Below, piece by piece: positions 57,437 through 58,756 of a stretch of DNA of 64,000 nucleotides (position 1 is its first letter; the number at the start of each line of letters is the position of its first letter). Below the pieces are notes generated by a model. The model ran no database searches. It saw only the letters and a list, made by a program, of their open reading frames with translations, and was not told the origin of the DNA. Origin of the DNA: Escherichia coli (GTDB lineage Bacteria > Pseudomonadota > Gammaproteobacteria > Enterobacterales > Enterobacteriaceae); the NCBI RefSeq assembly GCF_045037415.1, contig NZ_CP173438.1; one strand, 5' to 3'. The translations under genes and the position numbers were made by a program.

Positions 57437-58477
57437 ATGATCACCATTCGTGATGTAGCGCGTCAGGCTGGCGTCTCTGTGGCAACGGTTTCCCGGGTGC
57501 TCAATAACAGCACGCTGGTCAGTGCCGACACGCGTGAAGCAGTAATGAAAGCTGTGAGTGAGCTGGATTATCGGCCAAACGCCAATGCCCAGGCGCTGGC
57601 AACTCAGGTTAGCGACACCATTGGCGTGGTGGTGATGGACGTTTCTGATGCTTTTTTCGGCGCGCTGGTAAAAGCGGTGGATCTGGTCGCCCAGCAGCAT
57701 CAGAAATACGTGCTAATCGGCAATAGCTATCATGAAGCGGAAAAAGAGCGTCACGCCATTGAGGTGTTAATTCGCCAGCGTTGTAATGCGTTGATTGTTC
57801 ACTCAAAAGCATTGAGTGACGATGAACTGGCACAATTTATGGATAACATTCCTGGTATGGTGTTAATCAACCGCGTTGTGCCGGGGTACGCCCATCGTTG
57901 CGTTTGCCTGGATAATCTCAGCGGTGCCCGAATGGCGACGCGCATGTTGCTGAATAACGGTCATCAACGTATTGGTTATCTTTCTTCCAGCCACGGCATT
58001 GAAGATGACGCCATGCGTAAAGCAGGCTGGATGAGTGCGTTGAAAGAGCAGGATATTATTCCGCCGGAAAGCTGGATTGGCACTGGTACGCCGGACATGC
58101 CGGGCGGTGAGGCGGCGATGGTTGAACTGCTGGGGCGCAATCTACAACTAACCGCTGTATTTGCTTATAACGACAATATGGCTGCTGGCGCACTGACAGC
58201 ATTAAAAGATAATGGCATTGCGATTCCGCTACATCTCTCAATCATCGGTTTCGATGATATTCCCATCGCCCGTTACACCGACCCGCAATTAACGACCGTG
58301 CGTTATCCCATTGCTTCAATGGCTAAATTAGCTACCGAACTGGCCTTGCAGGGGGCAGCAGACAATATTGATCCTCGTGCCAGCCACTGTTTTATGCCGA
58401 CGTTAGTGCGTCGCCATTCTGTCGCAACACGCCAGAATGCGGCGGCGATCACTAACTCAACAAATCAGGCGATGTAA
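57437..58477 (+). CDS. galS: Galactose/mgl isorepressor GalS (LacI/GalR family)
   Basis: [25 protein letters not shown]... HTH; 346 aa from internal ATG. Confidence 0.93.
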
Positions 58478-58505
58478 CCGCTTTCAATCTGTGAGTGATT
58501 TCACA
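58472..58505. promoter_or_regulatory. mgl operon control region: GalS/GalR operator-like palindrome and CRP site
   Basis: atgtaaccgctttcaat (gal-operator-like, overlapping galS stop codon) followed by CRP consensus tgtgagtgatttcaca (58490-58505). Confidence 0.7.
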
Positions 58506-58756
58506 GTATCTTAACAATGTGATGGCTATGATTGCACCGTTTTAACGTTGTAACCCATATGTAACAGTGAATAATCACTTTCACCGAGGTAATAGCGTCA
58601 TAACAACAATTAAAGCCGTTTTCTGGAGCGTTACCGGGCATGGAAGAACGAATTTTAAAAAGTGAGCTTCGGCGTTCAGTAACACTTCATTAACTCTACT
58701 GCCCCGCCGAGCATTTATCTCAAGCACTACCCTGCATAAGAAAAACCGGAGATACC

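Follow-up and report, generated by a model that had tools for sequence, protein, structure and literature searches.

The galS stop codon inside the mgl operator of Escherichia coli: probably a tolerated, lineage-specific overlap in a known control region

The place where galS ends in Escherichia coli is, with high probability, simply the known control region of mglBAC, and the overlap between the galS stop codon and the operator would be a by-product that is tolerated there. The overlap of the operator with the end of galS is already known and stated in print, and the region is the textbook control region of mglBAC. What may be a new comparative result is that the overlap seems to be a derived state, which would have arisen in Escherichia through the loss of a stop codon. 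The argument is built on the features of the sequence itself, on their identity in coordinates with published GalR-bound and mutational sites, and on the pattern among related loci.

The window, that is the whole stretch of 64,000 nucleotides that was analysed, comes from the chromosome of E. coli. A segment of 501 bp around the operator site is 100% identical to several complete genomes, in which galS followed by mglB is annotated (RefSeq), and it has few base differences from K-12 MG1655, none of which touches operator, CRP site or -10. From the annotated ATG of galS at 57437 a protein of 346 residues is obtained, which aligns along its whole length with the NCBIfam GalS equivalog at 747 bits (cut-off 555). 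In MG1655 galS is found on the minus strand at 2240628-2241668, where the third base of the TAA is 2240628. In E. coli as a species the arrangement is fixed: of the 5425 genomes with a match to the 64 bp that surround the site, 5059 are at least 99% identical. The coordinates of the features are collected in Table 1. When the whole window was scanned with Rfam there was no match in the galS-mglB spacer. Elsewhere the scan found a naRNA4/CssrE element (REP-type) at 62425-62502 (+), about 1.1 kb past the end of mglA, a tRNA-Pro(GGG) at 13976-14052 (-) and a gammaproteobacterial L25 ribosomal-protein leader at 17768-17793 (-).

Table 1. Features around the galS-mglB junction, in positions of the window
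Feature	Position	Strand	Basis
galS promoter module: operator CTGTAACCGTTTCCAT (57326-57341), 3-bp gap, CRP-like TGTGActcgatTCACG (57345-57360)	57326..57360	.	consensus, matrix
galS CDS including TAA stop (GalS isorepressor, LacI/GalR family)	57437..58477	+	ORF, NCBIfam GalS equivalog, RefSeq
Escherichia-specific five-codon tail Thr-Asn-Gln-Ala-Met (TNQAM)	58460..58474	+	comparison with other genera
mgl operator (GalS/GalR site) ATGTAACC.GCTTTCAA, dyad centre 58479.5	58472..58487	.	consensus, matrix, ChIP-chip, mutations, conservation
galS TAA stop, operator positions 4-6	58475..58477	+	ORF and MG1655 mapping
cAMP-CRP site core TGTGAgtgattTCACA, centre 58497.5; 22-bp site about 58487-58508	58490..58505	.	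perfect core, conservation
Predicted mglBAC -10 hexamer TATGAT	58527..58532	+	sequence reading; conserved in the alignment of 25 genera
mglB, first gene of the mglBAC operon under this control	58757..59755	+	ORF; MglB equivalog, 660 bits

The consensus of the gal operators is a 16-bp hyphenated dyad, GTGNAANC.GNTTNCAC, in which positions 3, 5, 9 and 15 are essential by genetic evidence (Qian et al. 2016, PMC5110547). The 16-mer at the end of galS, ATGTAACCGCTTTCAA (58472-58487), matches ten of the 12 specified bases and deviates from the consensus GTGNAANCGNTTNCAC solely at its outermost positions, 1 and 16 (A...A), while all four critical bases, G3, A5, G9 and A15, are kept. It has in other words both the dyad and the four positions that mark an operator of the gal regulon. 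An earlier note on this DNA had read it as an operator-like palindrome; as a gal operator the reading stands, but the palindrome is imperfect, with ten of the 16 positions self-complementary.

A consensus match is by itself weak evidence for an operator. Matches with two mismatches or fewer are not rare, with seven in the window against 3.2 expected, and this could be taken to mean that the resemblance is due to chance and that the true operator is at some other place between galS and mglB. Four of the seven cluster within the 2.3 kb of galS and mglB; they are the ones that the literature lists for this region. A weight matrix was also used, and to guard against circularity it was trained on six operators at other loci (galE, galP, galR), all of them outside the window. 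It gives the mgl operator 15.4 bits and rank 2 among the approximately 64,000 16-mers, rank 1 being the upstream operator of galS itself, and a random sequence of 64 kb is expected to hold about 0.2 sites that score as high. The rank in the matrix, the invariance of the operator across 80 loci and the exact coincidence with published ChIP-inferred and mutational coordinates all speak against chance resemblance, to which we give practically no credence; it is contradicted by the published mapping and was rejected.

In that mapping, a GalR ChIP-chip peak at 2240625 was assigned to mglB with the inferred site TTGAAAGCGGTTACA, and the site is given as MG1655 2240618-2240633 (TTGAAAGCGGTTACAT) (Qian et al. 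2016, PMC5110547). The sequence TTGAAAGCGGTTACA is the reverse complement of 58472-58487, and MG1655 2240633-2240618 maps onto these positions of the window base for base. The mutational evidence comes from glucose-limited evolution. In "the mgl operator sequence mglO", which they sequenced, Kinnersley et al. 2009 described a G to T change that hits the repressor binding site 3 bp beyond galS and makes mglBAC semi-constitutive; recurrent derepressing mutations from chemostats were placed "3 bp from the end of mglD" (Kinnersley et al.). The same base, 2,238,647 in an older numbering in which galS ends at 2,238,650, swept to more than 90% in three chemostats, and a neighbouring change at 2,238,648 and a change in the CRP site at 2,238,630 also arose (Kinnersley et al. 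2021, PMC7863352). With the offset of 1,978 bases between the old and the current MG1655 numbering, the three changes fall on 58480, which is the essential operator position 9, on 58479, which is position 8, and on 58497 in the spacer of the CRP site. Position 9 is among the four at which a mutation inactivates a gal operator (PMC5110547).

The strings on which the earlier note was built, gatgtaaccgctttcaat and tgtgagtgatttcaca, lie at 58471-58488 and 58490-58505, and the galS TAA does fall inside the gal-operator-like site, as it had claimed. Its further claim, that the repressor gene ends within the operator expected to bind its product, is supported in E. coli by the ChIP-chip-inferred site and by the derepressing mutations. 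It had named a mapped operator elsewhere in the spacer as the observation that would overturn it, and the published coordinates coincide with 58472-58487. The strong CRP site that it placed directly after the operator was likewise confirmed: the core begins two bases past the operator, the centres of the two sites being 18 bp apart, and it is the only perfect TGTGA-N6-TCACA core in the 64-kb window, where 0.06 would be expected.

The mglB gene is cAMP/CRP-dependent and induced by cAMP/CRP (PMC1635313), and its promoter was used as a confirmed CRP-site control in a recent preprint. The predicted -10 hexamer TATGAT starts about 20 bp past the CRP site. From these landmarks we infer that transcription of mgl starts at about 58539-58541, which would put CRP at -41.5 to -43.5, at or near the -41.5 of a CRP-dependent class II promoter, and the operator near -60. 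Two recent preprints describe a "+30" mutation of mglBp that creates a consensus -10, and a start at about 58539-58541 fits this mutation because AATAAT at 58570-58575 is one change from TATAAT. This hexamer belongs to a promoter-like element in the 5' leader of mglB, TTGTAA-16-AATAAT at 58548-58575, that is one substitution short of a consensus -10 and appears to be the cryptic start behind the mutation. A generic sigma-70 scan flags this cryptic element only and misses the real, CRP-dependent mgl promoter, and a text search of the literature for published mgl promoter positions found no coordinates.

The leader of mglB (58539-58756) is long, about 218 nt, and belongs to no Rfam family. A few patches of it are conserved over 25 genera, e.g. 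about 58680-58686 and the last 40 nt ahead of the ATG. The mgl leader of Yersinia is of similar length and unrelated sequence (PMC3119520). The CRP site, when shifted by one base (CTGTGAGTGATTTCAC, 58489-58504), scores 11.1 bits on the gal-operator matrix, because the ends GTG...CAC are common to the CRP and operator motifs; the internal operator of galS scores 11.3 bits.

This internal operator is an operator-like sequence, GTGGCAACGGTTTCCC, within the first codons of galS (57479-57494). Together with the operator at 57326-57341 it matches sites in the published table of GalR ChIP-chip results, in which a site assigned to galS is given at 2241771 (PMC5110547). Another operator-like 16-mer, GTGAAATCCGGTGCAC, lies in the mglB CDS (59558-59573) and is without the central CG; it is the published "O (mglB)" site, 2239532-2239547 (PMC5110547). 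Further away, TTGTTATCGTTTGCAT at 52148-52163 scores 10.7 bits on the matrix and is identical to the "F13" GalR site of a 3C study, MG1655 2246944-2246959 (PMC5110547).

With four operator-like sites clustered within 2.3 kb, the site at the end of galS could be thought of as chiefly a downstream operator of galS, looping with the upstream and internal operators of galS or with the site inside mglB. Table 1 of Qian et al. 2016 (PMC5110547) labels the 16-mer "OE (galS)" and the site inside mglB "O (mglB)", and 3C contacts among these sites were reported. The ChIP-chip table of the same paper (Table 3) conflicts with this labelling and assigns the same 16-mer to mglB. Mutations in the site de-repress mglBAC (Kinnersley et al. 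2009; PMC7863352), its distance to the mgl CRP site is fixed at 18 bp in all of 80 loci, and in Yersinia pestis, which is without galS, the mgl regulatory region is nevertheless highly similar (PMC3119520). We find it very improbable that the site serves chiefly galS.

The comparison across genera covers 80 loci that encode close relatives of MglB, with one genome per species, from about 25 genera of Enterobacteriaceae. The operator (ATGTAACCGNTTYCAA) is present in every one of them and varies only at positions 10 and 13, which are both N in the consensus. Both half-sites of the CRP site are perfect in all 80 loci and stand at the fixed 18-bp centre spacing to the operator, so that within the CRP site the spacer bases alone vary. 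The place of the operator relative to the promoter is thus conserved in the relatives. When 25 genera are aligned, conservation stays near-perfect all the way from the first operator base (58472) to the -10, the CRP site included, and around the operator it is lowest in the 12 bp at 58460-58471, the codons for Thr-Asn-Gln-Ala in E. coli. The A at operator position 1, which departs from the consensus, is found throughout the 80 loci, even where it lies outside the coding sequence, and is therefore not imposed by the Met codon of galS.

An ORF that is 80-99% identical to GalS ends just upstream in all 80 loci, but where it ends differs. Its stop lies 12-15 bp upstream of the operator in 74 loci (15 bp in 37, 14 bp in 7 and 12 bp in 30), adjoins the operator in one (Cedecea davisae), and falls inside the operator in five. 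The five are E. coli twice, E. albertii and Escherichia sp. MOD1-EC7003, four loci that group with E. coli, and Cedecea sulfonylureivorans. The usual C-terminus of GalS is ...ITN or ...ITN[S/L], compared with ...ITNSTNQAM in E. coli. How the tail may have arisen can be read from the junctions of Citrobacter youngae, AAC TCA TAA AGT TGG GCT ATG TAA, and E. coli, AAC TCA ACA AAT CAG GCG ATG TAA: they are of equal length, and in E. coli the stop is replaced and the frame open to the TAA of the operator. The first four codons of the tail correspond to non-conserved spacer in the other genera, and its Met codon is operator positions 1-3. In the 67 loci where the stop is 12 or 15 bp upstream, the TAA of the operator is in the frame of galS, and it therefore forms a standing backstop stop codon.

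In Cedecea davisae GalS ends with ...ITLLPKS and a TAG that adjoins the operator, and in Cedecea sulfonylureivorans it ends with ...ITLLPKTLM at the operator TAA. Going by these sequences, the ancestral galS stop was lost a second time, independently, in Cedecea. In two loci the longest galS-like ORF reaches only 139 aa (Citrobacter amalonaticus AUH_CA_2023_1) and 280 aa (E. albertii NBRC 107761), which suggests a disrupted galS or an assembly error.

Judged by this distribution the overlap is specific to lineages and not a conserved design. An ancestral stop 12-15 bp before the operator would have been lost in the Escherichia lineage, and translation would therefore run five codons longer, to the in-frame TAA of the operator half-site (ATGTAAcc). 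The position of the operator is probably set by the mgl promoter and not by galS, the end of which would drift relative to the operator. That the mgl promoter fixes the position follows from three things: operator and CRP site are invariant in the 80 loci, the 12 bp upstream are variable, and Y. pestis keeps a highly similar regulatory region without galS. The galS stop comes to lie on operator positions 4-6 because galS is the immediate upstream neighbour in the same orientation and no terminator intervenes. From its non-conservation, the most rational explanation of the overlap would be that it is a tolerated by-product of a compact junction, and not a device.

The control that the region would exert is the one described for mglBAC. 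The cAMP-CRP complex at 58490-58505 would activate the promoter with the -10 TATGAT. In the absence of galactose GalS, and more weakly GalR, would bind 58472-58487 and prevent the CRP-dependent initiation, and galactose would release the repressors. In published work, GalS at the operator prevents formation of the open complex at the CRP-dependent promoter and is removed by galactose (PMC3119520, PMC7863352).

The overlap could on the other hand be functional in the manner of lacI and O3, a reading that we consider unlikely. GalS or GalR on the mgl operator would then block RNA polymerase coming from the galS promoter, the stopless galS transcript would lead to tmRNA rescue, and the tagged GalS would be degraded, which would amount to a galactose-sensitive negative feedback. 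The block would also insulate mglBAC from read-through from galS. There is precedent for this, since LacI at O3 acts as a roadblock to lacI transcription and causes SsrA tagging (PMC3711431), and the layout here is as in lacI, with the stop inside the operator and the CRP core following after 2 bp, compared with 3 bp after O3. A 2026 preprint reports that GalR on a gal operator placed in an ORF blocks RNA polymerase in vitro, giving a tmRNA-tagged truncated protein, that galactose relieves the block and that translation comes within about three codons of the site; the same preprint finds GalR to be a leakier block than dCas9.

A roadblock of this kind would also fit what lies after galS. A scan of the plus strand after galS found no terminator, the sole candidate being a 5-bp hairpin on the minus strand at 58469-58481, which is at chance level, and folding of the RNA of 58440-58560 gave no notable structure (z = -0.86). 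The galS stop and the mgl promoter are thus not separated by an intrinsic terminator or a stable RNA fold, and a polymerase that sets out from the galS promoter must run into the operator. Against a role for the overlap stands that the stop is inside the operator in only five of the 80 loci, so nothing selects for the overlap across Enterobacteriaceae. As at lacI and O3, an operator for the gene's own product lies over the 3' end of the coding sequence, but the relatives do not show the overlap to be kept by selection. The galS gene is moreover already repressed by operators at its own promoter, and a second layer may add little. A literature search for GalS together with tmRNA returned incidental co-mentions only and no paper linking them. 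One could still imagine that the loss of the stop in Escherichia alone brought GalS under a feedback through tmRNA tagging, similar to that at lacI and O3 and relieved by galactose, and that in most other genera the stop, lying upstream of the block, may still be transcribed; we hold such a gain in Escherichia to be quite unlikely. The tolerated by-product is the explanation that we prefer, and the overlap would be of more interest only if a roadblock like that of lacI were true.

The consequence for annotation is small, as papers on glucose-limited evolution already place the operator at the very end of galS. Variants at 58472-58477 are nevertheless changes of galS codons or of its stop and changes of the operator at once. 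A variant caller that labels them "galS" or "intergenic" can put a regulatory mutation into the wrong class; the change that swept in the published chemostats is 3 bp downstream of the stop. How an overlap of this kind can originate without apparent selection is seen from the comparison of the genera, in which a fixed operator half-site serves as a backup in-frame stop.

The promoter of galS itself resembles that of mgl in having an operator followed by a CRP site, with 19 bp between the centres. It differs in being truly intergenic, with about 30 bp between the end of the yeiB ORF at 57295 and the operator, in having one mismatch in its CRP core, and in having its partner operator inside the galS CDS, at 57479-57494.

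The P1 promoter of galETKM is also like mgl: both are controlled by GalR and GalS through operators of the same 16-bp family, and both have the operator directly upstream of the CRP site, at a centre distance of 18 bp in mgl and 19 bp in gal. The CRP site of galE P1 is at -41.5. The gal operon also has a second operator, OI (+53.5), with HU-dependent looping, and two promoters. In contrast to gal, mgl has one promoter-proximal operator and needs CRP, and the A...A at positions 1 and 16 of its operator is conserved in the 80 loci. The operator OE of gal is centred at -60.5 (PMC5110547).

The lac region is like mgl in that the gene of a LacI/GalR-family repressor lies directly upstream and in the same orientation, its stop falls within an operator to which its own product binds, and the CRP site follows 2-3 bp further on. 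The lacI gene has its TGA inside GGCAGTGAGCGCAACGCAATT, which we take to be the auxiliary operator O3 of lac, and 3 bp further on the CRP core begins. O3, at -82, is weak and works through looping to O1, and the lac CRP site is at -61.5 (class I). The overlap at lacI causes a roadblock, truncated mRNA and SsrA tagging (PMC3711431), whereas the likeness of galS is one of layout, and the galS overlap is restricted to Escherichia and one Cedecea.
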